64,000 bases of DNA from Candidatus Spongiisociaceae bacterium (GCA_965243835.1 OZ251578.1:1760303-1824302); one strand, 5' to 3'; shown: positions 393 to 64,000, counted from the first letter of the stretch. Notes: generated from the sequence alone by a model not told the origin. Numbers and translations are program-made.

Positions 393-569
393 ATGACGAC
401 CGCCCCTCCCCCGCCTACCGGCGTCTGGTCCAAAACCCTGGCCGTCCTGGCTCTGGCGGGCGTGCTGGTCCTGTTCATTCTCTGGCCCGACCCCGGAGCC
501 CCCGTCGACCCCTCCCCCGCCACCGTCGCCGAAACCACCACTACCGCCGCTACCGAAGCAACCCCGTAA
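393..569 (+). CDS. small hydrophobic Pro/Thr-rich protein (58 aa), hypothetical
   Basis: ATG at 393, in-frame to TAA at 567-569; one predicted TM helix (LAVLALAGVLVLFILW); GC-rich codon usage like the host; below the ORF-track size cutoff. Confidence 0.2.
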   Translation: MTTAPPPPTGVWSKTLAVLALAGVLVLFILWPDPGAPVDPSPATVAETTTTAATEATP

Positions 570-1344
570 CTCCCTTTCCCGCAGTCCCCGGTGCGAACGG
601 CAGGCTGTTTAACACGATCTGATGCAACTCCCCGTAATCCAAGATATCAAACGTGTCGGCTTTGATGTTCAGGGTTTTACATAACTCATTGGCGCTGTCT
701 GTTTGGAACAAGTATTCATTGTTAGCCAAAGCTATGTCATAGATGGCGGCTATTAGAACCGGATTAGACGAGAAAGCGCGAGCCATCAGCTGATGATACA
801 AACCTACATTGTTTGCCATAGTTTTTAGAAACGTATCAGAAGAATGCATGGAAAATTCTGAAGCCCGGAGCGCGTTTTCCGCCAACCACCACAGGCGGGC
901 GGCGGCGTTCCAGGTCCTGCCCGGCTTCCCGATCCACAACCAATGCCTCTTCACAAAATGCGCGGGCTTCTGTTTTTTGATGTGACTTTTCCAGCGCACC
1001 GAAACGTAGGGCGACAAGGCAAAACAATTCAGGGAAGCCCAAAAACGGCCGTCGTAGGCTTGTTCGGAGGAGAGGCCGGCCACGGCTTGCCGAAGGAGCG
1101 GCGCGTAGTGGGCGTCGGTCTTGGGCCCCGCTCGCCGGATTTGATTGAGCGGGTCCAACGGTATTCTCAGCTTGATGTCCGGATAGTCGTATGGCAGCTC
1201 GCCTTTTTCCGCGGCTAAATAGTCGAAACTCTCTTTGAGTTGCCTGCTGTCGCCTTGCAGGAACAGGTGGGGAACGGTATCAGCCAACTCCTCCATAATG
1301 CGGTACCCGCCTTGGTCGAGTCGGGGGACGTAGTTCAAAATCAT
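550..1344 (-). CDS. uncharacterized 264-aa protein, paralog of the ORF at 2265..3047; last gene of the 5-gene minus-strand operon
   Basis: Clear paralogy to 2265..3047 (shared blocks LDPLNQI, DAHYAPLxRQAV, LNCFAxSPYVxVRW, HWLW, NAAARLWWL, YHQL, AAxYDxA). Both flank a PAPS-reductase-like gene, which recalls the DUF4007-type partners of PAPS-reductase genes; family assignment from memory only. Confidence 0.6.
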   Translation of the reverse strand: MILNYVPRLDQGGYRIMEELADTVPHLFLQGDSRQLKESFDYLAAEKGELPYDYPDIKLRIPLDPLNQIRRAGPKTDAHYAPLLRQAVAGLSSEQAYDGRFWASLNCFALSPYVSVRWKSHIKKQKPAHFVKRHWLWIGKPGRTWNAAARLWWLAENALRASEFSMHSSDTFLKTMANNVGLYHQLMARAFSSNPVLIAAIYDIALANNEYLFQTDSANELCKTLNIKADTFDILDYGELHQIVLNSLPFAPGTAGKGVTGLLR

Positions 1345-1422
1345 ACCGGCACTATAGCGTAATCCAATCCGCCATAGCCGCCCGCGGCTACTTTTTCATA
1401 CGGGCTTGCGACATTCAAAAAT

Positions 1423-2238
1423 TCAGAGGGCGCAGTGGCCTTCGCACTCGTTCATAAAGTGGTCTTCTTCCTCCTCCTGGTCGGCCCGGATGGCTTCGGC
1501 GAGCGGTATGCGGCGGTGGTGGAGGAAAGCCCGCTTGCGGAACATTTGGGAGGCGTTGTGGTCGGGCGAGCGGAGGCGGGCGTCCATCCGCACCGCCTCC
1601 TCGAACAGGTCGGGGTCGCTTTCCCGCACTTCCAGCCAGCTGGCCGTACTGCGGAACGGGCATCCCACGCAGGCGCTCCTGGCCAGGGTGCGGCCCGGAT
1701 AGTTGGCCTCGAACCAGCCCTGGCATTCCCGGCGGGACATCGGCTGGTCGTCTATCAGCGGGAAGCGGTGCTTGATCCACCATTCGCGGTTCGGTTTGGC
1801 CCGCATCACCTCATCGGTGGATATGCCCAGCCACATTTCCACGTTGGTGTCCGCCGACAGCATCTGCCGGGGCCGGACGCCGAGCAGTTTTCTTACTTCG
1901 ATCCGGATCGGGTCCAACTTGTAGTTTTTGGTGCACTGCCGCCAGTTGATGCCCGCCGGGTCGCCGTTGCGCTCGGCCAAGAAGGCGGGGATGGTCAACC
2001 AGGGTTGCCCCTGGGCGTTTACCCCGTCGCGGACGTCATCCCGCAGGCTCCGCCCGTTGCTGATGGTGTGGATCGGGAAACTGACCTGCGAGCGGAGCCA
2101 TTCCACCGTGTCGTACACCCCCTGCGGCTCCCATCCCGTGTCGGCGAAGAGGGCTATATCCGGCTTGACCCCGAATACGCCCCGCTCGGCCAGAAGGCAC
2201 ATCACCGTGCTCTGAATGCCCCCGCCCAAACTGACCAC
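1423..2238 (-). CDS. phosphoadenosine-phosphosulfate (PAPS) reductase family protein (DndC/SspD-like ATP pyrophosphatase fold)
   Basis: N-terminal PP-loop-like motif VSLGGGIQS followed by DTGWE. This is typical of PAPS-reductase-like proteins of DNA-modification systems and phages. A C-terminal Cys cluster (CVGCP ... CEGHC) is present. Confidence 0.75.
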   Translation of the reverse strand: MVSLGGGIQSTVMCLLAERGVFGVKPDIALFADTGWEPQGVYDTVEWLRSQVSFPIHTISNGRSLRDDVRDGVNAQGQPWLTIPAFLAERNGDPAGINWRQCTKNYKLDPIRIEVRKLLGVRPRQMLSADTNVEMWLGISTDEVMRAKPNREWWIKHRFPLIDDQPMSRRECQGWFEANYPGRTLARSACVGCPFRSTASWLEVRESDPDLFEEAVRMDARLRSPDHNASQMFRKRAFLHHRRIPLAEAIRADQEEEEDHFMNECEGHCAL

Positions 2239-2264
2239 CCTCAGCGCCGGAGGGGCGACCGACT

Positions 2265-3047
2265 TTACCCGGTGGCCCCCCGTTCTTTTGGGGGCAGACT
2301 CTTCTCTACTATCTCATATAACTCATCATATCCAAACAAATCAAAACTAACAGTCCCCGCCCGCAAATTAAGAGCCTTCATCAACTGATTCGGGTACGGT
2401 TTACCAAACAAATAATCATGTTTCTCTATGGCCAAATCATACACGGCCGCCACTAGAATAGGGTTGGCGGCACTGTAAGTACGATCCGTTAATTGATGAT
2501 ATAACTCCACATTATCAGCCATAAATTCCAACAACTGTTCCTTTGAATATTTGGAGTATTCCGCCGCTCTATAGGCGGTTTCATATAGCCACCATAACCG
2601 GGCGGCGGCATTGGAAATACGAGGTCTAGTATTCCACAGCCAGTGATTTTTGACAAAATTAATAGGAAGAGCTTTCTTTAAATGGCTAGTGCTCCAACGA
2701 ACTGTTACATAAGGTGAGATGGCAAAGCAATTGATAGATGTCCATAACGTATCTCCAGCCGCCTCTGCCGGGCTTATACCGGAAACGGCCTGACGTACCA
2801 GCGGAGCATAGTGAGCATCGGAACCCGGACCAGACTGCTCAATTTGATTTAGAGGATCCAACGGTGCCTCCAATTCAATCTTCTTGGAGTGATATGGAGA
2901 ATCTCCGTTTTTGTCAGCCCTCTCCTCAATGCGTTTCCGGAGTTCATCCATATCACCTTTCAAGAAAAGGCCGGGGGTCTCCTCAGCCAGTTCATCTACA
3001 ATCAAGTAGCCATCTTCATTGAGCATAGGGATACTATTCAGCATCAT
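2265..3047 (-). CDS. uncharacterized 260-aa protein, paralog of 550..1344
   Basis: Same conserved blocks as 550..1344; start overlaps the stop of the upstream gene by 14 nt (operon). Confidence 0.6.
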   Translation of the reverse strand: MMLNSIPMLNEDGYLIVDELAEETPGLFLKGDMDELRKRIEERADKNGDSPYHSKKIELEAPLDPLNQIEQSGPGSDAHYAPLVRQAVSGISPAEAAGDTLWTSINCFAISPYVTVRWSTSHLKKALPINFVKNHWLWNTRPRISNAAARLWWLYETAYRAAEYSKYSKEQLLEFMADNVELYHQLTDRTYSAANPILVAAVYDLAIEKHDYLFGKPYPNQLMKALNLRAGTVSFDLFGYDELYEIVEKSLPPKERGATG

Positions 3048-3936
3048 CTATCAATCCTAACTTGAATAGTCGGCCAAATGGTCGCAACAACGAATCGCTG
3101 GTCAACAATAACTGAGCGGCTCTCATAATCGTATGTTCTGAGCCAAAATTAGAACTTCCTAAATTAATATTGTTGTCTTTTAGTTTTTGATGAATACATC
3201 TATACCAACCTATTGATGGTATAGATTCGGGTATTTCACCATCATTGTCATCATCTAATTCACGAAAATAAGATAATACAGTAATCAAAGAACTCAAAAA
3301 GACGCTGGGAATAGTTGCGTTCCTAACGCCTCGTAACCTACGAAACATATCGATGGTATCCTGATTGGCAATAATATCTACAAATCGTTCATTATGGTCA
3401 ATTTTTAAATCAAACTCATCTACCTTATATTCATCCTGGTTATCTACTTTAAGTTTGAATAAACTGTCCACCTTCAATTGTTGTGGATTAACTACGAAAG
3501 ACCAAGAATTATCAACAGCCAAGGGTCGACCTTTCTCGATTGGTATAGATATATTACCATATTCAGTATGAGCGGTAGAAGTAGGAAAATTCTCGATAGT
3601 ATCACAGGCGACAATAGCCGGATGCACCTCCACTTGATTCCTTAGGTATCTCATAGATATAGTTTCCAGCAGGCAAAACCTGTTATTATCTAATGTAGTT
3701 TCCAACGGTTGACGGTACATAGTATCACGACAATATAACATCGCCAAACAGCGAGCTTGCGAGGTGAGGATATGCTCCTCTATGATTTCATCACTTATCA
3801 AAAATTCCAACTTCACTTCAACATTGCTGGAAGTTTGCCGATTTTCCAGTAAAGTAGAGAAACTACTCTTAGGATAATCATCGGAATGCGGCCTGATGAC
3901 AGGATAAAGATAGTGCCGGTTGGCATCGTATTTCAT
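3034..3936 (-). CDS. hypothetical protein (300 aa), AT-rich, no recognizable motif
   Basis: Long ORF in a low-GC segment. Tightly packed between the GHKL ATPase gene (2-nt gap) and the paralog gene (14-nt overlap). Confidence 0.5.
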   Translation of the reverse strand: MKYDANRHYLYPVIRPHSDDYPKSSFSTLLENRQTSSNVEVKLEFLISDEIIEEHILTSQARCLAMLYCRDTMYRQPLETTLDNNRFCLLETISMRYLRNQVEVHPAIVACDTIENFPTSTAHTEYGNISIPIEKGRPLAVDNSWSFVVNPQQLKVDSLFKLKVDNQDEYKVDEFDLKIDHNERFVDIIANQDTIDMFRRLRGVRNATIPSVFLSSLITVLSYFRELDDDNDGEIPESIPSIGWYRCIHQKLKDNNINLGSSNFGSEHTIMRAAQLLLTSDSLLRPFGRLFKLGLIDDAE

Positions 3937-3938
3937 TA

Positions 3939-5801
3939 CTACTCCTCAAAAAATCTTATGGAAAAAGTTTTATCTGTGACAGGTTCCCTGGTAAAAATTT
4001 CTATTTCCCGGCGTTCGCCTGGTTCCGCATCGGGCAAGGAAAATAAATTGTCATCTACAACTTGCAGCGATTCGCCTCCTACGCTGGCTTTCCTAATACC
4101 CATAGGATACTTCGTCCCATCCTCACCCACCGACAACATTTCTATCTTGGTTGGAGTAGTTTCGGGTTGCTCAAAAGCAACAATAACCGAATGTGCATCA
4201 CTTGATCCTTTTCTAAAACGAACTCCCACAAAACTTTGGGGCGTGGCTGTGGCTTGCCGCTTTTCACCTTTCTTGCCCTTTTCCTGTCCCAGTCTATAAG
4301 TACTTGTGTCACCATTACCCGGAGTTTCAGTCGGTTGTTTATCCCGTTTTTTGGATTTTGTCTTTTTGGGTCTCCATGGTGCTCTAAGACTCTGAACAGG
4401 GTCTGTAACGATTGGATCGCCTTGGTTATCGGATTGATCCCGTCCTGTATCTTGGGATTCATCGCCCTCAATAGGAAGAAACTCCGCGAGCTCGTCGACG
4501 CTTTCTGAATCTGAGCCGGGATCGGGCTCTACAAAGTCCTTAATCACCTGATAACACCACCTGCCTATTTCATCAAACAACCCCTTGGCCTTTTTGCGCA
4601 ATTTTTCATCGCTAATATTGTCTATGCTTATTTGATCGTGCCTCGGAGATTCTGCCTGCCTCAACAGGGCTTCCCCTTTAGACTTGCATTCTATGATAGC
4701 GGTAAACCCCCACCAATGAGTAGGAAGCATAGCTAACTTAGGGAATATATATTTCCGGTCGGTTGTGATAAGCATACCAGCATCTCGCACTAATGCTATT
4801 TTCTTGTTACGAGTTTCCTTATCTACTTCAATACGAATTGATATTTCTCCTACATCATCCGCAGTAAAACGATCCACCGGTGCTTCTAAAGAAACTCGTA
4901 TATAATTCCGAACCATTTTATCTTGGATATCCTGTAAATAGTGCTTGTATGTCTTCACATTTATTTTACTATCGCCTACATTTACTTCCAATCCGCCATG
5001 TATAATGGCATGAAAATAATTACTCAGAACAATATCTATACCCCGTTTTTCCCATTCCTCTAACCCATCAGTAAAAGAATATCCAGGTATGTGGATAGCT
5101 GTACCAGGTTTCTTTAATTTTAGGTCAACGGGGACTTTATCGTTCTTAAGGGAATCGAATCTCTTCCCAAGATATCCAACCCTTTTGTATGGAGTACCGC
5201 TTTTGCCTTCGTGAGATACTAATATGGCCTTCCCCATAAAGCGTTGTCGAAGATGTCCGTTCTCCAAAAAGGCGGTGTTATACAATACTGTTCGTAAGGG
5301 AGTAGCAACAAAAGAGGCGAATTTTCCTATACCAAAAGAACCGGCGGCGTCTTTTTGCGGTTTGTTTGTCAGCCCCTCGCCCTTAGTAAGAGTTTCCCAA
5401 AATGTCGGTCGGTTATTATTCTTTATGTCCGTAGCGCCGGTTGTATTACTATCCGTTATACACAAGGATTCAATTGGGCTACCCCCCCCCCCCAATAAAC
5501 CCTTTGCTTTTTCAAAACCGGGGAGATATTTTTCTTCATTGTGGGGAGAATCTATCGCATACTGAATATGCCGCGCCAAACTATCTGTCGCCAACAAAAC
5601 GCCGTCTAACATCTTGTGCTGAAAATTGACTACCACGGGACCGGTGCCGTCCGGGGCTTCGGCATCCAAAGAGTTCTGAATAGCCTCCCTGATGATGGAC
5701 GTTTCGCGGTCGCCGGTAAAATGGGCCATGCCGGGATGGGCCGGCCCCTCGATAGCACCGGCCTGGTTCTCTTCGAACTTCCATTTGAGGTTTTGGCTCA
5801 T
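3939..5801 (-). CDS. GHKL-superfamily (histidine-kinase/MORC-like) ATPase domain protein, about 620 aa; first gene of the operon
   Basis: N box REAIQNSLDA and G box GSFGIGKFASF of Bergerat-fold ATPases. Start assigned to ATG at 5801 (MSQNLKWKF); an alternative start is at 5840. Contains an in-frame G12 tract. Confidence 0.65.
   Translation of the reverse strand: MSQNLKWKFEENQAGAIEGPAHPGMAHFTGDRETSIIREAIQNSLDAEAPDGTGPVVVNFQHKMLDGVLLATDSLARHIQYAIDSPHNEEKYLPGFEKAKGLLGGGGSPIESLCITDSNTTGATDIKNNNRPTFWETLTKGEGLTNKPQKDAAGSFGIGKFASFVATPLRTVLYNTAFLENGHLRQRFMGKAILVSHEGKSGTPYKRVGYLGKRFDSLKNDKVPVDLKLKKPGTAIHIPGYSFTDGLEEWEKRGIDIVLSNYFHAIIHGGLEVNVGDSKINVKTYKHYLQDIQDKMVRNYIRVSLEAPVDRFTADDVGEISIRIEVDKETRNKKIALVRDAGMLITTDRKYIFPKLAMLPTHWWGFTAIIECKSKGEALLRQAESPRHDQISIDNISDEKLRKKAKGLFDEIGRWCYQVIKDFVEPDPGSDSESVDELAEFLPIEGDESQDTGRDQSDNQGDPIVTDPVQSLRAPWRPKKTKSKKRDKQPTETPGNGDTSTYRLGQEKGKKGEKRQATATPQSFVGVRFRKGSSDAHSVIVAFEQPETTPTKIEMLSVGEDGTKYPMGIRKASVGGESLQVVDDNLFSLPDAEPGERREIEIFTREPVTDKTFSIRFFEE
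5482..5493 (-). repeat. homopolymeric tract, C12 on + strand = G12 in the coding strand of the GHKL ATPase gene (encodes GGGG; currently in frame)
   Basis: 12 consecutive C at 5482-5493 inside an otherwise AT-rich gene. Confidence 0.9.
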
Positions 5802-5866
5802 AGCGGGCCCTATATTACACTGGTCGGGCGGGGAAGGCAAATCCGCCGTCCCGCCGAGGAGGACTG

Positions 5867-6856: not shown

Positions 6857-9000
6857 ACCCGCCCGGAGATAAGCCCCGATCCCCCCGCACTCCCCAAAAA
6901 CGACCCCCTTGAATTTGCCGCCCACCTGAATTAAACTGAAAAGGCGGAGCAAAACTGAGGGCGGGCGGGTGGGGGGTGGGCGGGACCCCGCCTTCCGAAA
7001 AATTTTTCCGAGAACGCGAAAAAAATACCTATTTTCCCCAATATCTCCGTCAGGGGAACGCCCACCCGCGCTGGCGCCTCCCCCGGCCCCCGTCTTTGTC
7101 ACACCACCGGATTAAGGTAGGTAACCATGATGACATACGACACCCAACTAGCCCATCAACTCCTCCGAGCGGGCGCCGACGACCCGCACGCCGAGTCCGC
7201 CCGCAACAAGAGAAAGCCACCCGCTTCCTAATAACCCCGCCCGAGAAGAAGCACCGCTCCCCCGCACTCCCCAAAACGACCCCCTTGAATTTGTCACACT
7301 AGGCCATTAAAATTAAAGGCGGAGCAAAACTGGGGGCGGGCGGGTCCCCGCCTTCCGAAAATTATTTCCGAGAACGCGAAAAAAATACTTATTCTCCCCA
7401 ATATTTTCCGTCCGAGGAACGCCCACCCGCGCAGTGCCGTCCCTGCCTCCGTCTTTGACACCCCCGGATTAAGGTAGGCAACCATGACATACAACACCCA
7501 ACTAACCCACCAACTCCTCCGAGCGGGCACCGGCGACCCGCACGCCGCGTTCCACCCCCAACCAGAGGAAGCCACCCGCTTCCTAATAACCCCGCCCGAT
7601 GAGAAACACCGCTCCCCCCACACTCCCCAAAAACGACCCCCTTGAATTTGTCACACTCGGCCATTAAAATTAAAGACGGAGCAAAACTGGGGGCGGGCGG
7701 GCGGGGGGTGGGCGGGTCCCCGCCTTCCGAAAAATTTTTCCGAGAACGCGAAAAAAATACTTATATTTATTTCCGTCAGGGGAAACGCCCGCCGCGCCGG
7801 GTCCCGCGCCTTGGCCCCCGTCTTTGTCACACCACCGGATCAAGGTAGGCAACCATGACATACAACACCCAACTAACCCACCAACTCCTCCGAGCGGGCG
7901 CCGACGACCCGCACGCCGAGTTCCACCCGCAACAAGAGAAAGCCACCCGCTTCCTAATAACCCCACCCGAGGAGAAACACCGCTCCCCCCACACTCCCCA
8001 AAACGACCCCCTTGAATTTACCGCCCGCCTGAATTAAACTGAAAAGGCGGAGCAAAACTGGGGGCGGGCGGGACCCCGCCTTCCGAAAAATTTTTCCGAG
8101 AACGCGAAAAAAATACCTATTTCCCCCAATATCTCCGTCAGAGAAACGCCCACCCGCGCTGGCACCTCCCCCGGCCCCCGTCTTTGTCACACCACCGGAT
8201 CAAGGTAGGCAACCATGACATACGACACCCAACTAACCCATCAACTGCTCCAAGCGGGCGCCAGCGACCCGCACGCCGAGTTCCACCCGCAACAAGAGAA
8301 AGCCACCCGCTTCCTAATAACCCCACCCGAGGAGAAACACCGCTCCCCCCACACTCCCCAAAAACGACCCCCTTGAATTTGTCACACTCGGCCATTAAAT
8401 TAAAAAGGCGGAGCAAAACTGGGGGCGGGCGGGCGGGGGGTGGGCGGGTCCCCGCCCTCCGAAAATTTTTTTCCGAGAACGCGAAAAAAATACTTATTTT
8501 TCCCAATATTTCCGTCAGGGGAACGCCTGCCGCGCCGGGTCCCGCGCCTTGACCGCCATCTTTGTCACACCACCGGATCAAGGTAGGCAACCACAACATA
8601 CGACACCCAACTAGCCCATCAACTCCTCCGAGCGGGCACCAACGACCCGCACGCCGCGTTCCACCCGCAACAGGAGAAAGCCACCCGCTTCCTAATAACC
8701 CCACCCGAGGAGAAACACCGCTCCCCCCACACTCCCCAAAAACGACCCCCTTGAATTTGTCACACTCGGCCATTAAATTAAAAAGGCGGAGCAAAACTGG
8801 GGGCGGGCGGGCGGGGGGTGGGCGGGTCCCCGCCCTCCGAAAATTTTTTTCCGAGAACGCGAAAAAAATACTTATTTTTCCCAATATTTCCGTCAGGGGA
8901 ACGCCTGCCGCGCCGGGTCCCGCGCCTTGACCGCCATCTTTGTCACACCACCGGATTAAGGTAGGTAACCATGATGACATACGACACCCAACTAGCCCAT
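6857..9000 (+). repeat. tandem array A: about 5.8 direct copies of a 355-380-bp cassette. Each copy holds a promoter-like element, a G-rich leader, an A5T5 palindrome, an RBS, and the start codon plus about 30 codons of the downstream helicase gene
   Basis: Motif cactccccaaaa(a)cgacccccttgaatttg recurs at about 6887, 7263, 7621, 7991, 8351 and 8731. ATGACATAC start-like segments recur at 7127, 7484, 7855, 8215 and (ATG lost) 8590; the real start is at 8971. Two unit subtypes alternate 1,2,2,1,2,2, implying a higher-order duplication of about 1.1 kb. Copies differ by several percent. Confidence 0.9.
8751..8779 (+). promoter_or_regulatory. sigma70-like promoter candidate (TTGAAT-N17-TAAATT) of the last cassette, about 190 nt upstream of the helicase start; equivalent hexamers are in every cassette
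   Basis: -35 TTGAAT at 8751-8756, 17-nt spacer, -10 TAAATT at 8774-8779. The same architecture (TTGAAT-N17-TAAAAT) is at 7642-7670 and in the other units. Confidence 0.4.
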
Positions 9001-11067
9001 CAACTGCTCCGGGCGGGGGCCGGCGACCCGCGCGCCGGGTTCCGCCCCCAACAGGAGGAGGCCATTCGTTCCCTGGTCGGGGGCCGGGCCCCGAACCGGC
9101 TGTTGCTGGTTCAGAAAACCGGATGGGGCAAAAGCTTCGTCTACTTCATCGCCACCAAGCTCCTGCGCCGACAGGGGAAGGGGCCGGTCCTGCTCATTTC
9201 GCCCCTGTTGGCGTTGATGCGCAACCAGATCGCGATGGCGGAGCGTTTGGGAGTGGCGGCCGCCGCCATCCACTCCGGCAACAAACCGGAATGGAAGAGC
9301 GTGGTCGAGCGACTGTCCCGGAACGAAATCGACATTCTGCTGATCTCGCCCGAACGGTTGGCCAATCAAAAATTTAGGGAAGACGTGTATGCGCCCCACC
9401 TAAGCCAACCAGGTATGTGGGTGGTGGACGAAGCCCACTGCATATCGGACTGGGGGCATGACTTCCGACCGGATTACCGGCGGATCGAGGGCCTGGTCCG
9501 CGGCCTGCCCCCCAATGTTCCGTTGCTGGCCACCACCGCCACCGCCAATGACCGGGTGGTGGACGACCTAGAGCAAATACTGGGGCCGGATCTGCGAATT
9601 ATGCGGGGCGACCTGGACCGGCCGTCCCTGCGTCTGCAAACCATCGCCATGCCCTCCCCCCGGGATCGCTTGGCCTGGTTGGCGGAGAATGTTCCGCAAC
9701 TGCCCGGCAACGGCGTGATTTACACCTTGACCGTCCGGGATGCGAAGCGGGTGGCCCGGTGGTTGCAAAGTTGCGGAGTGGATGTCCGCGCCTACACCGG
9801 CTCCACCGACCCGGCGGAAAGGCCGGTTCTGGAAAATGCCCTGCTGGACAATCGGCTGAAAGCCTTGGCGGCCACCTCCGCCTTGGGCATGGGTTTCGAC
9901 AAACCGGATTTGGGGTTCGTCATTCACTATCAGGCCCCCGGATCGGTGATCGCCTACTACCAGCAGGTGGGCCGGGCGGGGCGCGGCATCGGCGAGGCCC
10001 GCGGTGTGCTGTTGAGCGGCGTCGAGGACCAGGACATCATCGATTACTTCCGCGAAAACGCCTTCCCGACCCGGGCGGAAGTGAAGGAAATGCTGGCCGC
10101 TCTTAGGAGAGCGAAGGACGGGCTGTCGTTCTACGACCTGGAAACCAGGGTCAACCTCAACAGCTACCGCTTGCGCCAAACCCTGAAATTGATGGAGTTG
10201 GAGACCCCGGCTCCGTTGGCCCGGCAGGATTCGGTCTATCAACTGACCCCGCATCGTCTGGGAGCGGGCTTCTGGGAGCGCGTGGAACGTCTCAACCGAC
10301 TGCGCCGGGAGGAGCAGGCTGAAATGCGGGAATACGTCGGGCTTGCATCGGGGCATATGAACTTTCTCATCAAGGCCCTCAACGGCTCCCCCGCCGCCGG
10401 CGATGACCCGCCGACCCTGCCGCCCCTTCCCACCACCATTTCCGGAAAACACCGGGTGGCCGCCGAGGATTTCCAAAAACGCGACTGGTATAGCATCGCG
10501 CCGCGTAAAAAATGGCCGAGGGGCGGCCTCCCCCGACTCGGCGTCCGCGGCCCCATCCCAGAAGACCGCAAATACCAACGGGGACGGGCCCTTAGTTTGT
10601 GGGGATTCGGCGCTCTCGGTCGGCTGGTAAAACAGGGAAAATACCAAGACGCCCGCTTCCCGGATCAATTGGTGGAAGATTGCCGGCGAATGTTCCGCGA
10701 CTGGAACCCGCAACCAACGCCGCGCTGGGTCGCCTGCGTGCCTTCACACAGCCATCCCGACCTGGTACCCGATTTCGCCCGGCGGCTGGCGGACGCCCTG
10801 GGTCTCCCCTTCCGCTCCGTACTGGAAAAAACCGGCAAAAACCGTCCCGCCCAAAAAGTTATGAACAACAGCAGGATGAGGGCCGACAACGCGGACGGAG
10901 CGTTCCGGGTAAACGACCGCCTGATGGGCCCGGAATACGGGGAACCGGTACTGCTGGTGGATGACGTTGTGAATTCAAGATGGACGATGACCGTGTGCGC
11001 CTGGCTGTTGCTGACGCAGGGAAGCGGCGAGGTGTTTCCGTTGGCCTTGGCGCAGGCGGGGGACTAA
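8971..11067 (+). CDS. RecQ-family DNA helicase fused to a C-terminal ComFC/GntX-like phosphoribosyltransferase (PRTase) domain
   Basis: RecQ motifs: PQQEEAI, TGWGKSF (Walker A), DEAHCISDWGHDFRPDY, LATTATA, YQQVGRAGRGIG. C-terminal about 130 aa carries ComFC-like motifs (NADGAFRV ... VLLVDDVVNS), characteristic of type-I PRTase/ComF proteins. Confidence 0.8.
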   Translation: MMTYDTQLAHQLLRAGAGDPRAGFRPQQEEAIRSLVGGRAPNRLLLVQKTGWGKSFVYFIATKLLRRQGKGPVLLISPLLALMRNQIAMAERLGVAAAAIHSGNKPEWKSVVERLSRNEIDILLISPERLANQKFREDVYAPHLSQPGMWVVDEAHCISDWGHDFRPDYRRIEGLVRGLPPNVPLLATTATANDRVVDDLEQILGPDLRIMRGDLDRPSLRLQTIAMPSPRDRLAWLAENVPQLPGNGVIYTLTVRDAKRVARWLQSCGVDVRAYTGSTDPAERPVLENALLDNRLKALAATSALGMGFDKPDLGFVIHYQAPGSVIAYYQQVGRAGRGIGEARGVLLSGVEDQDIIDYFRENAFPTRAEVKEMLAALRRAKDGLSFYDLETRVNLNSYRLRQTLKLMELETPAPLARQDSVYQLTPHRLGAGFWERVERLNRLRREEQAEMREYVGLASGHMNFLIKALNGSPAAGDDPPTLPPLPTTISGKHRVAAEDFQKRDWYSIAPRKKWPRGGLPRLGVRGPIPEDRKYQRGRALSLWGFGALGRLVKQGKYQDARFPDQLVEDCRRMFRDWNPQPTPRWVACVPSHSHPDLVPDFARRLADALGLPFRSVLEKTGKNRPAQKVMNNSRMRADNADGAFRVNDRLMGPEYGEPVLLVDDVVNSRWTMTVCAWLLLTQGSGEVFPLALAQAGD

Positions 11068-12125
11068 TGACCTGGCCGCTTCTGCCCAATACACAGGCGA
11101 TTCTGCTTTTGACCGCGCCCCTGCTGGCGGGAGGGGAGGGCGACGTAGCCGAACGGTTAAACTTGCGGGGATACCGAAAACTGGAAGAACATCTGCGCGG
11201 TCGGGGGCGCGATCTAGCCGACCTGTTGCTGGAGGACCCGGAGGAGGTTCTGGGGGAAAGCCCGCCCTGCGACATCGGGAGAATCAAGGACCTGCTACGG
11301 AGGGGAGGGCGTCTGGCGGCGGCCGTCGACCATTGGAGCACGCGCGCCATCTGGGTGATCAGCCGCTTCGACGAGGAATACCCGCGCCGCTTCCGCACTC
11401 GCCTCGCCGGCTCGGCCCCTCCTCTGCTGTACGGGTGCGGGGACCGGTCGCTCCTCAACCGGGGGGGATTGGCGGTGGTGGGGCCGCGCCAAGCGGACGA
11501 AGACGCCCTGAAATTCGCCCAGTGGACGGGAGGCTTGACCGCCCGGGCCGGGTTTCCTTTGATTTCCGGCGGGGCGCGGGGTGTGGACCGGGCGGCTATG
11601 ACCGGGGCCATGGAAGCGGGCGGGCAGGCGGTGGGGGTGCTGGCGGGTAAACTGGAAAAAGAAATAATGACCCGCGACCGGCGGGATTGGATTCTGGAGG
11701 AGCAGATGTTGATGGTCTCCCCCTACGACCCCGGGGCCGGTTTTCACCGCGGGACTGCTATGGGACGCAACAAGTTGATCTACAACCTGGCCGACGCCGC
11801 CCTGGCGGTGGAAGCGGACCCCAAACGGGGCGGAACCCGCGCCGGGGCGATGAACCAACTGCAGGCCAACCGCAAACAACCCGACCGACAGGTTCCCATA
11901 TACGTACGGGACATCCCCAGCCCCGGCCTGGACTCCCTGCGGGAAAACGGAGCGCAAACCTGGCCCGACCCGGAAACAGCCGACGAACTAAAAAACATCC
12001 TGGACAGCGCAACGGTATTTGACTCTCCGGACCACTCCCAACCTCGCCCACCTGTCATCCCGGCTGATGAGCTATTTCCCGAAACCAGTCAACAGCAACC
12101 ATTGCCCCTCGGTGCCGGAGGGTAA
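11067..12125 (+). CDS. dprA: DprA/Smf-family protein (DNA-processing protein A; SLOG/Rossmann fold), translationally coupled to the helicase gene
   Basis: Start ATG overlaps helicase stop (TAATG at 11065-11069). DprA SAM-like N-domain (EYPRRF..APPLLYGCGD) and Rossmann core (LAVVGPRQA, ISGGARGVDRAAMTGAMEAGGQAVGVLAGKL, SPYDPGAGFHRGTAMGRNKLIYNLADAALAVEA). Confidence 0.7.
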   Translation: MTWPLLPNTQAILLLTAPLLAGGEGDVAERLNLRGYRKLEEHLRGRGRDLADLLLEDPEEVLGESPPCDIGRIKDLLRRGGRLAAAVDHWSTRAIWVISRFDEEYPRRFRTRLAGSAPPLLYGCGDRSLLNRGGLAVVGPRQADEDALKFAQWTGGLTARAGFPLISGGARGVDRAAMTGAMEAGGQAVGVLAGKLEKEIMTRDRRDWILEEQMLMVSPYDPGAGFHRGTAMGRNKLIYNLADAALAVEADPKRGGTRAGAMNQLQANRKQPDRQVPIYVRDIPSPGLDSLRENGAQTWPDPETADELKNILDSATVFDSPDHSQPRPPVIPADELFPETSQQQPLPLGAGG

Positions 12126-12560
12126 CTACTCCTCCGCATCATCAATATTGTTAGGGTTCATAGACTCCGCCAACTGCTCTACTTGGTTTATCAATAATTC
12201 AATCTCGGGAACAGTAGGTACCAAATCATATTCGTGATGGTGACAGGCCCGACTTAGGGCTACCCAAGCGGAGTGGGCATCTTCGGATGTCACAGTATCA
12301 ACTGCAACCCTACCGTCTCGGGCTAATTGCTTAAGACAAGCAAGTTGCGTAAACCGGCTTGTATTCTTCATATAGCGATAATAGTAATGGTCATTCCAAA
12401 GTCTGTCCAGTGTCGCTTCAAGAACTTGGCGAGTCAGCAAAGCCGCCGCCCGATGCCATTCGCCTCGCGGCCCATCAGTATGGTTGAGTAAACCCCGAGC
12501 GAGGTTTAGTAGGTCAAGGGTCATAACGACGTAATCTTTCGGCCAAACTTTGACAATCAT
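12126..12560 (-). CDS. small His-rich hypothetical protein (144 aa), downstream partner of the Rad50/SMC-like ATPase
   Basis: AT-rich ORF overlapping the upstream gene by 47 nt; no recognizable motif. Confidence 0.45.
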   Translation of the reverse strand: MIVKVWPKDYVVMTLDLLNLARGLLNHTDGPRGEWHRAAALLTRQVLEATLDRLWNDHYYYRYMKNTSRFTQLACLKQLARDGRVAVDTVTSEDAHSAWVALSRACHHHEYDLVPTVPEIELLINQVEQLAESMNPNNIDDAEE

Positions 12561-14922
12561 TAATTAGATTAGCCAAATCACCAGAATATTTACTATGAGT
12601 ACCTTTATTAGTATCGCTGAATACCTCTGCAAATCTCTTCCCCCATTTACTGGAGATTTTACCAAACACTTTGTCGCTTTTATTAATACTATCAAATAAC
12701 GCTACAGAGGCTTTCTGACTTAATTTCTTGGCCTCGAATAACTCTTGTTCAATCACCTGATGAGTTTTACCTTTATCCAGCCATCGTCGCCATACTGCTT
12801 CCACACAGGCGGCTTCTAATCCGCTACGACAAAACCCTGGAATAACCCGCCTTGCTATATCCTCTAGCATATCATCATCCTTCAAAATGGACCGTGCCTC
12901 AAAAAAATATTGAATAACCGGATCGCGCTTTTCCGCAATAGTAACTTTCGATTTTACCGATCTCCTAACCTCTAGACAATGGTGTTCAATATCTAAATGA
13001 CGTAAAGACTCCGGGAGTCGATTGTCGTGAGTGAACACAATTAGTTGACGACTCTTGGCAACCTTGGCGAATACTCTGGCTAGTCCATCAACCCGAGCAG
13101 GGTCCATAGATTGTATCGGATCGTCAATAACCAAAAAGCGAAAGGGACTAGCGGGAAGCATTACCCGGGGAAAGAAAATGGACAAAGCCAAACTGTTTAT
13201 TTCTCCTTGACTAACCACAGACAAGGCATCTGTCTTAATATCATCCACTTCCACCCCAAGGGCCACTCTACGTTTAGTGCGACTACCAGTTAGTTGAACG
13301 GAAAGTAAATCAACGTTGCTTTCCAAACGTAGTTCTTTCCAAATTTCCAAGGCCTGGTTCTCTATAGGAGACCAACGGGTGTTACGTATATTTTCGTTTA
13401 CTTCTTTAAGATATTTTTCTGCCCTTTTTAGGTTAGTAATTTCTGATTGCTCTCTCCTTACTCGACAGGCTTTGTGAACCCAAGGCGAAAGAATAGACAT
13501 AGCCGCTAGCCACTTTTCTTCTCTATCAGAGTACAACTGACGAGCTTGTTCAATAATTTTATTTGCTTCACTTTCGACCGAGGAGTATAATGTAAGCAAG
13601 TGTTCATCTATTTCACTTTTATCGTCAGGCAACGAACTCCACTTTTTCCAAATAGAAACCAGCGAACCTATCTCTATAGTTTCAGTGTCGGACAATAGAG
13701 GAGGTTCTATCAAAATCTCAACCTCCTTTATTACGTTTTCCAGATTACTTTTGGCATCCCTATATTTTTGAGAGCTTGCTTTCAGTCTTTCTATCTGCTC
13801 TTCTACTTTGGTAACCCAACTACTATCCAAAATACCTTCTTCGCAAACTGGACAACGATTGTTCTCGTGTGTGCCATAATATTTCAAAGCCAGATTTAAT
13901 ATACTCATTAAGTTTTCGGCGTGCTCTGCTTCCGTACCAGATAAGTTAGACCAATCTGTATATGCCTTGTTCAGTTTTTTTGCTATTTTCAATACTTGCT
14001 CTTGATTTGGAACCTTGATATTTATAAGAGTTTGTAAATCCTGATGATAAGTAACTGGCTCCGATTGAAGACTTTTTATAATATCCAAGTCCCAATTTCG
14101 TTTCTTGACAGCTTCCACAACTTTTGTTGCACGCGGGTCTTCTAGTTGCTCAAACTGGGGAAGAATATTATTTTTTCGTTCTGCCTCTACCTGGTTTGCC
14201 AGTTTTTCTCGTGCTAATCGGGTATTAGCTAAAGCTTTCATCGCTTGGGCAATAATACCAATACCGAGTACTTTGCTGAGAGTGTCATGCAGGGATGACG
14301 GACTATTTTCAATGATGCCAAGTTCCTTATACGATAAAATGGGGCGATATAAATCAAGTGGTTCTTTCCAACCTATTCCATCTAGATCGGAAATTTCCTT
14401 TCCATGATGTTGCGCACTGCATTTTCCTTCTTCCAGTTCGGAATTTTGGGACCAAGTGCACTCTACCATAGTTGGTTTATTCATTCCTTCTACTTGAAAT
14501 CTGGCGGATATTTTGGTATTATTGCCCTGATGGAGATTCCGCCAGCCTTGCTTCCAAACTACCGCTTTTTTGCTTTCCCAGCGATAGCTATCCCCGGTTA
14601 ACAATACTTCCAATCCTTCTGCGAAGCTGGACTTGCCGGAGCCGTTTCTGCCTACAACGACCGTAAGACCCGGGCCGGGAGGTATCTCCAATGTGGCCTC
14701 CGGTCCGATACCGCGAAACCCGGATACCGTTATGTCCTGTAGGTAAACAGGCGGAACCAGCTCTCCGTTGTCCGACATCGTATCGGGTCCATCTACGTAT
14801 TCATCAGTTAAGACGCGCTCCACGTCATCCTCACCCCTGAGGGCGGCTAGCACCAGGCTTATAATCTGCTCGTCTTTAGTAAGTTTGGCGAGCTCTTGTT
14901 CTACTTCTTGATAGAGGCCCAT
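12514..14922 (-). CDS. Rad50/SbcC/SMC-like ABC ATPase with a central CxxC zinc hook (802 aa)
   Basis: Walker [13 protein letters not shown] signature VSQGE, Walker B RFLVIDDP, H-loop IVFTHD, long coiled-coil middle with NRCPVCEEG zinc-hook motif. AT-rich relative to flanks. RBS AGGAGGGG 5 nt before ATG at 14922. Confidence 0.7.
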   Translation of the reverse strand: MGLYQEVEQELAKLTKDEQIISLVLAALRGEDDVERVLTDEYVDGPDTMSDNGELVPPVYLQDITVSGFRGIGPEATLEIPPGPGLTVVVGRNGSGKSSFAEGLEVLLTGDSYRWESKKAVVWKQGWRNLHQGNNTKISARFQVEGMNKPTMVECTWSQNSELEEGKCSAQHHGKEISDLDGIGWKEPLDLYRPILSYKELGIIENSPSSLHDTLSKVLGIGIIAQAMKALANTRLAREKLANQVEAERKNNILPQFEQLEDPRATKVVEAVKKRNWDLDIIKSLQSEPVTYHQDLQTLINIKVPNQEQVLKIAKKLNKAYTDWSNLSGTEAEHAENLMSILNLALKYYGTHENNRCPVCEEGILDSSWVTKVEEQIERLKASSQKYRDAKSNLENVIKEVEILIEPPLLSDTETIEIGSLVSIWKKWSSLPDDKSEIDEHLLTLYSSVESEANKIIEQARQLYSDREEKWLAAMSILSPWVHKACRVRREQSEITNLKRAEKYLKEVNENIRNTRWSPIENQALEIWKELRLESNVDLLSVQLTGSRTKRRVALGVEVDDIKTDALSVVSQGEINSLALSIFFPRVMLPASPFRFLVIDDPIQSMDPARVDGLARVFAKVAKSRQLIVFTHDNRLPESLRHLDIEHHCLEVRRSVKSKVTIAEKRDPVIQYFFEARSILKDDDMLEDIARRVIPGFCRSGLEAACVEAVWRRWLDKGKTHQVIEQELFEAKKLSQKASVALFDSINKSDKVFGKISSKWGKRFAEVFSDTNKGTHSKYSGDLANLINDCQSLAERLRRYDP

Positions 14923-39124: not shown

Positions 39125-40171
39125 CTAGGCGCGGGCCTCTTTTTTGACCAGAGGTGCGGCTTGACTCCTCGGCGATCCCACCCGAAACACCTTGCGAGGG
39201 CGTCCCACGCCCTGCTTCTCGTGGTGGGCTATGACCAGACCCGCTTCTTCGAGACGGCCCAGTACCTGGGCGGCGCGGGCGCGGGTTACTCCGAAGTGCT
39301 CTTGCAGTTCCTCATCGGAGGCGCTGACCGGACCGAAGACCAGGATGTGTTGCCAAAAGCGGGCTTCGGTTCCGCCCAACCGGGCAGCCTCCTGCCGGAA
39401 ACGTTCCCGACTGGCGTTTTCCCCGGCGTCGCTGAGGAGCGACTCCCGCACCAGTGCCAATATCCGCCGGGGGTTGCCGCTGCCGCCTTTGATGATTTCC
39501 TCATATTCGGAACGAATAATGTCCACCTCCCGGACATCCTCGGAGCCGGCGATCGCCAACCGCGCCTCCAAAAGATCGCGGGCAACAGGATCGTCCATGA
39601 GCCCGATGGCGATCTCGGCTTCGAAGAAAGCATCGGCGGGAGGGGTCAAATATTCGGAGCGATAACGGGACAAGCCGCATACCACCCAGCGACAGGGCAA
39701 CCTCCATATCTCGTCCCGGTAACGCCCGAACATCTGGTGCGTCAACTGCGGAGCGTGCATATCGTCAAGGAACACCACCGGCAAAACTTCTTCCTCAACC
39801 CGCCTTATGCGTCGCACCAAATCATGAAACCGGGAACCGGTCGCGGGCGCGGGGAGCCCCATCACCTCTCTGTGAACATCGGAAAGTATTTGACGACGGC
39901 CCATCCCCCATGTGACGATCGCATCGTACACCTGCGCGGAATCCTTGATTTTGGCTCCGCTCAGGTAGAAGCAAGGGCGGCCCGCTTCCTCCAGCCGCCT
40001 TTGGTACTGAGACATGAGCGAGGTGACCCCGATGCCGCGCTCCCCCAGGGCCAGCACGTTGAAATCCAGCCGGGCGGCCCGCTCCAGGCGACGGAGCTCG
40101 GCTTCCCGGCCGACGAACAACCTGCCGTCGGCGTTGGATGCGGTCAGCGGTCTCTGACTGAGATGTAACAT
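39125..40171 (-). CDS. ATP-binding protein (archaeal-ATPase-like) with C-terminal winged-helix domain
   Basis: FVGREAELRRL lead-in typical of Arch_ATPase/ORC-like NTPases, degenerate P-loop GERGIGVTS, C-terminal wHTH (VTRARAAQVLGRLEEAGLV). Confidence 0.45.
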   Translation of the reverse strand: MLHLSQRPLTASNADGRLFVGREAELRRLERAARLDFNVLALGERGIGVTSLMSQYQRRLEEAGRPCFYLSGAKIKDSAQVYDAIVTWGMGRRQILSDVHREVMGLPAPATGSRFHDLVRRIRRVEEEVLPVVFLDDMHAPQLTHQMFGRYRDEIWRLPCRWVVCGLSRYRSEYLTPPADAFFEAEIAIGLMDDPVARDLLEARLAIAGSEDVREVDIIRSEYEEIIKGGSGNPRRILALVRESLLSDAGENASRERFRQEAARLGGTEARFWQHILVFGPVSASDEELQEHFGVTRARAAQVLGRLEEAGLVIAHHEKQGVGRPRKVFRVGSPRSQAAPLVKKEARA

Positions 40172-40231
40172 TATTTGCTAAATTTACAGTAAGTTTAGCA
40201 AATTGTCAAATCGCCTGGTCAGAGCGGGTTT

Positions 40232-40765
40232 TCAGTCGGGGTCGTAATCGTCGTCGTAGACATCGCATTCGCCATCTTGGTCGTCGTCGTCCTCGTCGCA
40301 ATAGTTGTCGTAGTCGTGCTCGTAGTCATCGCATTCGCCGTCGTAGTATTCTTGGTCGTCCTCGCAGACGAAGGTGGTCGTGGTGGTCGCCTTGGTGCTC
40401 TTGGTGGTGGTAGTCGGCTTGGTGGTGGTCGTCGTCGGGGCGGTAGTGGTAGTCGCGGGCCGGGCGGCGGGGTCCACCGAGTGCAGATGGTCCTGCCCGC
40501 CGCTGAGGAAAGTGGCCGCCTGCCCGCGGGTCAAACCGTCCGGGTAGGCCCGCAACAGGACTTTGGCCAACTGCGCGGCGGTGATGTTCCGATCGGGCCG
40601 GAACGACCCGTCCGGGTAACCCTGGAACCATCCCCGCTCCACGGCCACCCGTATGCCGTCGGAATGCAGATGCGCATCGGGCACATCGTCAAACGAGGTC
40701 AACGCAACCGCCGCCGCCCCGCCCAACAACACCGCGAAAAATACCGACGCCAATATTCTTTTCAT
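40232..40765 (-). CDS. SLH-domain protein with poly-Thr linker and acidic Cys-containing C-terminal tail
   Basis: Signal peptide, SLH motif (FDDVP..H....I....G...GYPDGSFRPD..ITAAQLAKVL), T-rich linker (TTTTAPTTTTTKPTTTTKSTKATTTTT), D/E/Y/C-rich tail. Confidence 0.7.
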   Translation of the reverse strand: MKRILASVFFAVLLGGAAAVALTSFDDVPDAHLHSDGIRVAVERGWFQGYPDGSFRPDRNITAAQLAKVLLRAYPDGLTRGQAATFLSGGQDHLHSVDPAARPATTTTAPTTTTTKPTTTTKSTKATTTTTFVCEDDQEYYDGECDDYEHDYDNYCDEDDDDQDGECDVYDDDYDPD

Positions 40766-40806
40766 AGTAGTACCTCCGCTATCACCGAAGAAGGTTTGAA
40801 TACCAA

Positions 40807-41532
40807 CTACCCAAGTATCTCGGTAAGGATATTACTACGGGTACGGTCCTTGTATAAATAATAATACCAATTATAAAAAACGCCTCTCCGTAAATCCCAC
40901 ACCTCGATTTTTATCCTTCTGTTGTCACCGGGCCAAGTATGAGTTGGGCTATAACCTCCCACCTCATATGGATCTACTGTAAATGAAGTAGAATCCCAAA
41001 AATTATCGACATCTATCTCCACACCAAAATCAATATTGCACTCACTATTATCAATGGAAAAACGGATCTCGTTGTCTGATAACCATTCAGCCTCTCCTAG
41101 GGGGAACGGGCAGGAAAATGGTGCCGCAAGAGTGGTTGGAACGGTGGCTGTAGTCGTGGTAGTCCTTATGATAGGTCGCGTAGTGGTTGTGGTTGTTATA
41201 ACGGGTCTGGTAGTAGTTGTAGTAGTGGGTGGGCCGTTTTCCAGGTAGGTTATGCCGTAGTACAGGATGGCCGCCGTCTGGGCCCTGGTTATGGAGTCGT
41301 AGCTGTCAAACAGGCGTTTTACCACTATTTGCAGTTCGTTTTCGGACAGCTCCCTATCCGGTTTGAAACTCCGGTCAATATAGCCTTGGAACAAGCCCCT
41401 GTTGTAAGACCATTCTATGGCCTCATTAAACTCGTGATCTTGCGGAACATCCGTGAAGCGACCGCTGGTGGCAATCACGGGAGCGGCCAGCAACAACGCC
41501 AACGTAGCGGTGGCTATCAACCTGAACTTCAT
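40807..41532 (-). CDS. SLH-domain protein with poly-Thr linker and AT-rich C-terminal domain
   Basis: Signal peptide, SLH motif (FTDVPQDHEF..AIEW....GLFQGYIDRSFKPD), T-rich linkers, low-GC C-terminal half. Confidence 0.65.
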   Translation of the reverse strand: MKFRLIATATLALLLAAPVIATSGRFTDVPQDHEFNEAIEWSYNRGLFQGYIDRSFKPDRELSENELQIVVKRLFDSYDSITRAQTAAILYYGITYLENGPPTTTTTTRPVITTTTTTRPIIRTTTTTATVPTTLAAPFSCPFPLGEAEWLSDNEIRFSIDNSECNIDFGVEIDVDNFWDSTSFTVDPYEVGGYSPTHTWPGDNRRIKIEVWDLRRGVFYNWYYYLYKDRTRSNILTEILG

Positions 41533-41613
41533 TTACGACTCCAATCCGGTCACAGCGGGAGGTCGCGCCGCGGAATTACCCGCGGCGCGAGCGGTTCACC
41601 GCCGAAAGGGGGC

Positions 41614-60019: not shown

Positions 60020-60088
60020 GGCCCCAATCTACCCTTTGGCGGGACCGCGCCGTCGGAAAACGTCACTTGGCCCCGCTACAATGGCCGT

Positions 60089-60367
60089 ATGAACCGTGCA
60101 ACCGATGCCAAACCGATGACGGTAGGCGACCTGGTGCGGGAACTGTCCCGCTACCCGGACGACCTGCGCGTAATGGTGAGCGGCTACGAGGACGGCTTCG
60201 ACGACTTGGAGCCCGGCCTGCTCTCCGTGCGGGACGTAGCCCTCGATCGACACCCGGAGTGGTTCTACGGCCGACACGACACCCCCCTCCCGGAAGACGC
60301 GGAGGACGTCGCGACCGTGCCCGCCCTTCTCATCCACCGCCCCAACAAAACAGACGACCTGCCATGA
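60089..60367 (+). CDS. small hypothetical protein (92 aa) translationally coupled to the downstream AAA_21 ATPase
   Basis: ATG at 60089; stop TGA overlaps next ATG (ATGA at 60364-60367). Confidence 0.45.
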   Translation: MNRATDAKPMTVGDLVRELSRYPDDLRVMVSGYEDGFDDLEPGLLSVRDVALDRHPEWFYGRHDTPLPEDAEDVATVPALLIHRPNKTDDLP

Positions 60368-63121: not shown

Positions 63122-63122
63122 A

Positions 63123-63743: not shown

Positions 63744-64000
63744 AAAAATACATGAAGCAAGCCACTTTAGGTAGCATAGCACCATTCACTTATGGTAAAG
63801 GCTTACTCAAATCTAAGAGAAACCACTTCGGTAGGGTACCGGTATATGGTTCAAATGGTATCATCGATTATCATGATACGCCGCTAACAGATGGACCCAC
63901 AATTATAATAGGTCGCAAAGGTACTGTAGGAGCTGTGCATTTTTCTCGTATCCCTTGCTGGCCAATTGACACAACATTTTACATAACAAGCTCAGATATT
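63740..64000 (+). CDS. hsdS: type I restriction-modification specificity subunit HsdS, N-terminal part (continues beyond window)
   Basis: N-terminal TRD-like sequence (GRVPVYGSNGIIDYHDTPLTDGPTIIIGRKGTVGAVHF..WPIDTTFYI) typical of HsdS. Confidence 0.7.
   Translation, partial: MKKYMKQATLGSIAPFTYGKGLLKSKRNHFGRVPVYGSNGIIDYHDTPLTDGPTIIIGRKGTVGAVHFSRIPCWPIDTTFYITSSDI

Follow-up and report, generated by a model that had tools for sequence, protein, structure and literature searches.

What does a gene resembling 3'-phosphoadenosine 5'-phosphosulfate (PAPS) reductases do next to a GHKL-type ATPase, and to what kind of system do the two belong? The question is raised by a stretch of 64,000 nt from Candidatus Spongiisociaceae bacterium (GCA_965243835.1, OZ251578.1:1760303-1824302), here called the window, in which five open reading frames (ORFs), g1 to g5, follow each other on the minus strand. 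An earlier reading of the DNA (the sequence-only reading) had listed these five ORFs, all of which are present, and had taken them for a probably foreign operon, possibly of defence type, that it could assign to no named system; its observation was partly confirmed and its interpretation is partly supported. Our best reading is that what is new here is a PAPS-reductase-like modification module on a known candidate family, PDC-M33, with an ATPase of the paraMORC2 type. The locus is probably a variant of PDC-M33 without the usual C5 methyltransferase, in which a PAPS-type enzyme would instead provide an undescribed, probably sulfur-based self-marking of DNA.

Gene order in the operon and its relatives

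In PADLOC, the products of g1, g2 and g3 match the three models of the candidate anti-phage system PDC-M33, namely PDC-M33A (E 3.1e-72), PDC-M33B (1.5e-37) and PDC-M33C (3.4e-18), colinear and on one strand, and g5 is a second match to the PDC-M33C model. The gene combination is thus not without a name, as had been supposed. We refer to the three families as A, B and C, and to g4 and its counterparts as PAPS. Pfam assigns g3 (E 9e-20) and g5 (E 4.6e-17) to DUF6339 and has no match for g1 and g2, while NCBIfam has none for any of the five proteins. As proposed earlier, g3 and g5 are paralogues (51% identity); the accompanying suggestion that they resemble DUF4007 is not borne out: compared with DUF4007 and BrxA-like DNA-binding proteins, they show neither a sequence match to DUF4007 nor a fold of one helix-turn-helix and two winged helix-turn-helix modules after it.

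Relatives of the operon were scanned in one genome per species, anchored on an alignment of A (a 14-sequence subset served as the query, the 38-sequence alignment being too divergent), and all ORFs of the 78 loci obtained were then searched with a profile for each of the four families A, B, C and PAPS. These loci form two clades. Clade I comprises 31 loci with an A protein 31-58% identical to g1, mostly from Dehalococcoidia and other Chloroflexota, plus one Acidimicrobiia metagenome-assembled genome (MAG). Its gene order is A-B-C-PAPS on a single strand in all 31, so that the PAPS-reductase-like gene is indeed integral to the module; no further conserved neighbour gene was found beside these four in the 31 loci. 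One Dehalococcoidia genome (OZ251547.1) carries two separate A-B-C-PAPS operons (L007 and L020). Clade II comprises 47 loci from many phyla with an A protein 24-31% identical to g1. Here A-B-C is found wherever the sequence after A is complete (L062 holds a split A only), and PAPS is absent from every locus.

The two clades also differ in their methyltransferases. A gene for a C5 cytosine methyltransferase is found no more than 8 kb away in 40 of 47 loci of clade II and in 1 of 31 loci of clade I; it abuts A in 16 of the former and in none of the latter. In a sample of ten clade II loci, the gene abutting A upstream was a C5 cytosine methyltransferase in seven, and the small ORF after C was Vsr in both of the two loci checked. 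Several clade II relatives (L035, L040 and others) display a five-gene operon of the form C5 methyltransferase-A-B-C-Vsr, and an EcoRII-like enzyme is also encoded in about ten clade II loci. Neighbour joining of the A sequences groups all 27 PAPS-linked tips in a single clade, without exception.

Two further observations concern the relation of PAPS to its partners. First, C and PAPS share a single reading frame in L011 (10453-12333), in L021 and, with a partial C, in P0109/L092 (7001-8191). Second, PAPS is by far the best conserved of the four: the median identity to the window proteins is 68% for PAPS, 42.5% for C, 38% for A and 33% for B. A programmed frameshift joining C and PAPS was also considered; the peptide conservation upstream of the PAPS start is mostly that of the overlapping, conserved C terminus of C in the other frame.

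The encoded proteins

The A family is widespread, with 2101 representative clusters at E<=1e-3. The sequence-only reading had taken g1 for a Bergerat-fold (GHKL) ATPase, and the GHKL motifs (RExIQNSLDA, DxNTxGA and GSFGxGK) are present and conserved: in 38 homologues the Bergerat boxes (E39, N43, D46; D117xxT120xG122; G154xxG157xG159K) are invariant or nearly so, and the invariant residues of the family are R38, E39, Q42, N43, D46, T120, G122, G154, G157, G159, E384 and H388. The statistical support from profile comparisons is weak: matches to Pfam HATPase_c_3 stay below threshold (E 0.02-0.11), an hhalign comparison with E. coli MutL aligns the N box at P 0.0015, and sequence and profile searches of the PDB with A gave nothing meaningful. 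Downstream of the GHKL domain, g1 has a linker of low complexity and basic character and, at the C terminus, a domain rich in beta strands. The invariant E384/H388 pair forms an ExxxH motif. Such a motif, together with an S5-fold domain behind the GHKL domain, is strongly conserved in paraMORC2, a family of GHKL proteins whose operons also encode cytosine methylases and Vsr (Iyer, Abhiman and Aravind 2008, PMC2292703).

B is predicted to fold into an N-terminal beta-sandwich followed by a helical C-terminal region. The B family has no catalytic motif in common, and among about 70 homologues neither B nor C retains a group of residues that looks catalytic. The AlphaFold2 model of DUF6339 is confident (pLDDT 92.6) and all-alpha, with no convincing structural match in the PDB or BFVD. 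Its near-universal positions are aromatic residues and arginines (W102, Y113, R117-W118 and R150-L-W-W153). Our literature search found nothing relevant on DUF6339 or PDC-M33.

The closest family of g4 is the phage family phrog_424 (E 1.2e-41 over residues 2-270); the PADLOC SspD model matches more weakly (E 2.4e-11 over residues 2-256). The match to Pfam PAPS_reduct is confined to the N-terminal 66 aa and lies exactly at the gathering score (22.5 bits), and the genomic context is a defence operon rather than cys genes, so that g4 does not qualify as an assimilatory CysH, the marks of which are a PAPS_reduct domain of full length, the catalytic Cys of a C-terminal ECGLH and genes of sulfate assimilation nearby. 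With E. coli CysH it has 23% identity and can be aligned at the loop, a DTG motif and one C-terminal Cys. The PP-loop-like SLGGGIQS noticed earlier was found at residues 3-10, and in this form (SLGGG[VI]QS), at the extreme N terminus, it is invariant in the 35 homologues examined; relative to it, many annotated homologue starts are placed 12 residues too late. The loop aligns with SSSFGIQA of CysH and has a Gln at the position where the canonical PP-loop, SGGxDS, has its Asp; DndC and SspD carry the canonical form, SGGKDS. Further conserved features are DTGWEP, RQCTxNYKxxPI, Cys102, Cys172, Cys190-x-x-Cys193 and a C-terminal ECEGHC (ECxGxC in the family), a cysteine pattern that fits a putative Fe-S cluster and a sulfur-relay tail. 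A phmmer search of the PDB with g4 gave only beta-glucosidase matches, which are spurious, and a phage homologue had no match there. The family profile gave one marginal match (E 0.027), to a 270-aa protein named PptA (21fy chain C), the aligned fragment of which itself matches phrog_424 at 1e-24. We found no publication on PptA, and this solved structure may already hold the biochemical answer for the g4 family.

Outside the operons, the g4 family is mostly encountered on its own. Close homologues (56-89% identity) lie in A-B-C-PAPS operons, and one at 50% identity was located in an integrative element that lacks A-B-C. Of the phage genome collection, 39 records align with at least 80% of g4; the full-length phage homologues are 31-39% identical and have the same G-x-G-x-Q-S loop, which marine homologues also carry, and the same Cys motifs. 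In cultured phages these genes stand alone inside replication modules, which fits an enzyme acting on DNA by itself. Stand-alone homologues (39-47% identity) also make up 78 of 80 loci from the JGI/TARA metagenomes. By comparison, a search of 2.9 million IMG/VR viral contigs brought up no relative of A.

Composition, g5 and the surrounding island

The features of the operon and its surroundings are listed in Table 1. For g1, the likely start is the ATG at 5801 and not the TTG at 5840, because homologues begin at g1 residue 14-19. The close packing ascribed to the whole operon is real for g1-g2 (a gap of 2 nt) and g2-g3 (an overlap of 14 nt), but not for g3-g4 and g4-g5, which are separated by 26 and 78 nt. 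A scan for promoters and terminators in the operon gave no usable signal, the AT-rich genes inflating promoter-like matches.

Table 1. Genes and other features of the operon and its neighbourhood, in window coordinates, with GC content overall and at third codon positions (GC3).
Feature	Coordinates	Strand	Product or content	GC	GC3
g1 (A)	ORF 3939-5840 (633 aa from TTG); likely gene 3939..5801 (ATG, 620 aa)	-	PDC-M33A, GHKL paraMORC2-like ATPase	0.45	0.42
g2 (B)	3034..3936 (300 aa)	-	PDC-M33B	0.38	0.35
g3 (C)	2265..3047 (260 aa)	-	PDC-M33C, DUF6339	0.46	0.46
g4 (PAPS)	1423..2238 (271 aa)	-	PAPS-reductase-like, phage family phrog_424	0.65	0.86
g4-g5 spacer	1345..1422 (78 nt)	-	holds GC-rich palindrome 1375-1390, TAGCCGCCCGCGGCTA
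g5	550..1344 (264 aa)	-	second DUF6339 paralogue	0.54	0.66
LLM gene			flanking LLM oxidoreductase	0.69	0.86
Tandem array	6876-9064		378-bp unit, 5.9 copies, 85% match
PsyrTA	8971-12125	+	PsyrT (2.5e-253) and PsyrA (1e-97)
LmuB-like gene	12514-14922	-	802-aa AAA_15 / LmuB-like ATPase (LmuB E 7e-24)	0.42

Low GC had been claimed for all five genes. This holds for g1, g2 and g3; g5 is intermediate, and g4 has a host-like codon GC, with the same GC3 as the flanking LLM gene. Because of this equality, and of the AT-richness of g1-g3, the operon is a compositional mosaic and not one foreign block, which contradicts its acquisition as a single horizontally transferred unit. The gene order PsyrA-PsyrT-LLM-system-flank is common to the window, L004, L083, L085 and the Acidimicrobiia MAG (L005), and in all five syntenic genomes A-B-C is AT-rich (GC 0.38-0.46) and PAPS GC-rich (0.60-0.65). 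Evidently the mosaic is old and maintained, and because it is the same in all five relatives we rejected a recent acquisition of the whole operon. Between the window and L005, the LLM protein, encoded by a flanking housekeeping gene, is 87.5% and PAPS 86% identical, compared with 58% for A, 61% for B and 61% for C. Judged from these alignments, the presumed sensing genes A-B-C turn over while the PAPS enzyme stays fixed.

The arrangement of two paralogues bracketing the PAPS gene, regarded earlier as the architecture of the module, is local: within clade I a second DUF6339 copy occurs only in the window and its closest relatives, and L005 has none. The window and L004 share 97-100% nucleotide identity, falling to 61-74% across 600-1400, the g5 region. 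At the position of g5, L085 (11633-16930) and L001 (2477-7762) instead contain an inverted GHKL module of 633, 276 and 287 aa followed by two tandem DUF6339 genes; its 633-aa protein is a distant PDC-M33A match (about 1e-9) and the proteins of 276 and 287 aa have no family. A decayed remnant was considered as an explanation for g5 and ruled out, since the gene keeps every invariant residue of a 43-sequence DUF6339 alignment. As far as sequence comparison can tell, g5 is a lineage-specific extra DUF6339 allele, swapped between strains and lying outside the conserved core. Four other DUF6339 homologues (P0137, P0141, P0144 and P0147) are about 57% identical to g3 overall but identical to it in the last 40 or so residues, a pattern that suggests recombination breakpoints within the gene.

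The operon sits in a defence island, which agrees with the earlier view of a defence-type, modification-linked module. On one side lies a complete PsyrTA pair, consisting of a RecQ-like helicase with a C-terminal extension (PsyrT) and a DprA-like protein (PsyrA); all five related genomes have the pair in syntenic position, but its proteins are only 63-69% identical to the Acidimicrobiia MAG versions. Beyond it is the AT-rich gene for the LmuB-like ATPase. A tandem array separates the LLM gene from PsyrT and has fewer copies in L004; the ORFs listed across it are probably spurious. Other stretches of low GC occur in the window at 40-42 kb (0.57) and among positions 60000-64000 (down to 0.33 at 63-64 kb), and these regions, at about 40000-42000 and 60000-64000, may be other acquired islands.

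A putative self-marking system, its rivals and its counterparts

We consider it somewhat better than an even chance that A-B-C-PAPS is a four-gene system which, like restriction-modification or BREX, relies on an epigenetic mark to tell self from non-self, with a swapped modification enzyme. A would be an active GHKL ATPase of the paraMORC2 type, B probably a non-catalytic adaptor, and A, B and C together the fast-evolving part that senses and restricts. In most lineages the genes of this trio accompany one for a C5 cytosine methyltransferase, with Vsr after them in the two loci checked; in the clade that includes the window, where methyltransferase and Vsr are absent, the PAPS-like enzyme would write the self mark on DNA. 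This role is assigned to g4 because PAPS and a linked C5 methyltransferase exclude each other, the PAPS clade has one origin only, PAPS is fused to C in places and evolves slowly, and its family is distributed among phages. The mark would probably contain sulfur, as a phosphorothioate or a thiolated base, given the Fe-S-type cysteines and the C-terminal Cys-x3-Cys tail of the g4 family. Since C and PAPS are fused in some genomes, C, helical and with conserved Trp and Arg residues, is probably the DNA-binding or targeting partner of the PAPS enzyme. The g5 protein would be an extra DUF6339 allele, either a leftover of a second GHKL module next to the operon or a loan from it, and may alter specificity. 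What the sequences themselves show are the gene families, the constant order, the mutual exclusion of PAPS and a linked methyltransferase, the fusions, the rates of evolution and the island; that DNA is the substrate, what the mark consists of, that A-B-C restricts and what g5 does are inferred.

An exchange of enzymes of this kind follows the logic of BREX type 1 versus type 4 and of Dnd-like cores with cytosine methylases. In BREX type 4 the PglX methyltransferase is replaced by the PAPS-reductase protein BrxP, which together with the ATPase BrxC makes phosphorothioate (PMC12914056, PMC12839542), and Dnd-like CXC-ABC ATPase cores are found coupled to cytosine methylases (PMC10853773). A bolder and more tentative version goes further: a stand-alone phage-type enzyme (GxQS loop, Fe-S cysteines and Cys pair) may write phosphorothioate or a new thiolated base, and a complex of the MORC-like ATPase may read this mark and, with no need of a classical nuclease, exclude or silence any DNA that does not carry it, with DUF6339 alleles such as g5 tuning specificity.

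Several points weigh against a self-marking system with a swapped enzyme. The searches with A, B and C revealed neither a nuclease or helicase nor any other effector that could be recognised, and PDC-M33 is a candidate system only, for which our literature search found no paper that tests it. The GGGxQS loop lacks the canonical Asp, so that an ATP-dependent adenylation of DNA in the style of DndC or TdpC is not assured; the PADLOC DndC and BrxP models have no match to g4 at E<=0.1, SspD alone being matched; and no cysteine desulfurase is linked to the operon among the neighbours of the 31 clade I loci. Moreover, 14 marine loci (among L097-L138; two lineages, 70% identity) have a stand-alone g4 homologue that follows a C5 methyltransferase gene on the same strand at a distance of less than 200 nt, which indicates that the two enzymes can coexist and do not only substitute for each other. 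Finally, the joins of C and PAPS were seen in MAGs, most of them assembled from long reads, where indel errors could have produced them.

That no nuclease was found in A-B-C speaks for the first of the other explanations, which we hold to be unlikely: that A-B-C-PAPS is a modification machine only, its proteins cooperating like DndCDE, SspBCD or BrxPC, in which A-B-C find and prepare the sites, and restriction is done elsewhere or nowhere. Known phosphorothioate synthesis does combine a PAPS-reductase protein with an NTPase and a DNA-recognising component (PMC12707154, PMC12914056), and the C-PAPS fusions have a parallel in BrxP, where a PAPS reductase is joined to DUF4007 (PMC12839542). However, the same trio is encoded with C5 methyltransferases, enzymes that need no ATPase helpers, and the phage homologues of g4 stand alone. 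The fast evolution of A, B and C beside a slowly evolving PAPS is, in addition, typical of components that face an invader.

Less likely again is that the PAPS-like protein does not modify DNA at all and serves as an effector or metabolic enzyme (using ATP, PAPS or adenosine 5'-phosphosulfate, modifying tRNA or proteins, or transferring sulfur) once A-B-C has sensed infection. Its loop is closer to that of CysH (GxQS) than to the PP-loops of ATP-pyrophosphatases, its C-terminal Cys tail is CysH-like, and QueC-family enzymes of other defence systems act on proteins (PMC13639016). Against this, the protein and a linked DNA methyltransferase are mutually exclusive, it is fused to C, it evolves at the slow pace of a housekeeping gene, and its homologues lie in replication modules of phages and, in two marine lineages, beside DNA methyltransferases.

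We give a still smaller chance to a module for DNA repair or chromosome maintenance in place of an immune system, with a MutL-like ATPase aiding Vsr-type repair at modified cytosines and PAPS as a partner that generates or processes lesions. Dcm is part of the clade II operons, as is Vsr in the two loci checked, and Iyer et al. 2008 (PMC2292703) drew a parallel to MutL and its part in mismatch and very-short-patch repair, leaving room for repair roles. Against this, the clade I loci have neither Dcm nor Vsr, the system is patchily distributed with variable flanks, in the lineage of the window it sits in a defence hot spot with exchange of alleles, and PADLOC lists it as a defence candidate. 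The phage-derived counter-defence cassette once envisaged for this locus, recently landed in the chromosome from a phage or other mobile element, is very improbable: the g4 family is phage-rich, its 50%-identity homologue lies within an integrative element and g1-g3 are AT-rich, but A has no relative among the 2.9 million viral contigs, no phage or integrase genes are adjacent, the codon GC of g4 is host-like, and five related genomes have the locus at a syntenic place in the chromosome, GC mosaic included.

If the self-marking system is real, a new enzyme family and a class of GHKL/MORC-like ATPases would join the systems that mark self by other means than methylation (Dnd, Ssp, Tdp and BREX type 4). 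Phages have many "PAPS reductase" genes that are so far unexplained, and these would acquire a function, as phage copies of the host mark. One A-B-C core combined with either a C5 methyltransferase or a PAPS-like enzyme would also be a natural experiment on how a MORC-type ATPase reads epigenetic marks. In Acidimicrobiia, the locus would represent a chromosomal defence hot spot in which strains exchange sensing genes as well as an extra DUF6339 allele around a fixed enzyme.

Among the known systems, the theme of a PAPS reductase with an ATPase and a DNA-binding protein is shared with Ssp and Dnd. The SspD model covers g4 at full length, weakly and far less well than phrog_424, but the five proteins include no SspA (cysteine desulfurase), SspB (DUF4007) or SspC (P-loop ATPase). 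Likewise there is no DndA, DndD or DndE; the DndC, DndD and DndE models are unmatched at E<=0.1, and the loop reads SLGGG[VI]QS. For phrog_424 itself, the family nearest to g4, we found no published function, and its phage and marine members, alone or beside a C5 methyltransferase, are unlinked to A-B-C.

BREX type 4 offers the likeness of a PAPS-reductase protein in the place of a methyltransferase, often fused to a helical DNA-binding partner and working with an ATPase (PMC12914056, PMC12839542). The operon differs from it in having no BrxC, PglZ or BrxL, with no PADLOC Brx or PglZ match; its ATPase is of the GHKL and not the P-loop type, the partner is DUF6339 and not DUF4007, and g4 does not match the BrxP model. 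A conserved trio with a cytosine methylase and a paraMORC-related GHKL protein also exists in the triplets of C5 methyltransferase, HEF_HK GHKL protein and Response_reg_2 (Bellieny-Rabelo 2021, PMC8011034), but the partner proteins are others, and A, B and C have no Pfam match to HEF_HK or Response_reg_2.

With paraMORC2, A shares an N-terminal GHKL domain and an ExxxH motif downstream, a likeness by motif only, and the clade II neighbourhoods share the cytosine methylases and Vsr; the usual partners of that family, superfamily 2 helicases and restriction-fold nucleases, are absent here, and PMC2292703 describes no PAPS-reductase partner. PDC-M33 resembles the operon in that its three models are matched, in unchanged order, by g1, g2 and g3 (and g5), and differs from it in two respects: the PAPS-like fourth gene, which among the models matches SspD only, and the second copy of C in the window.

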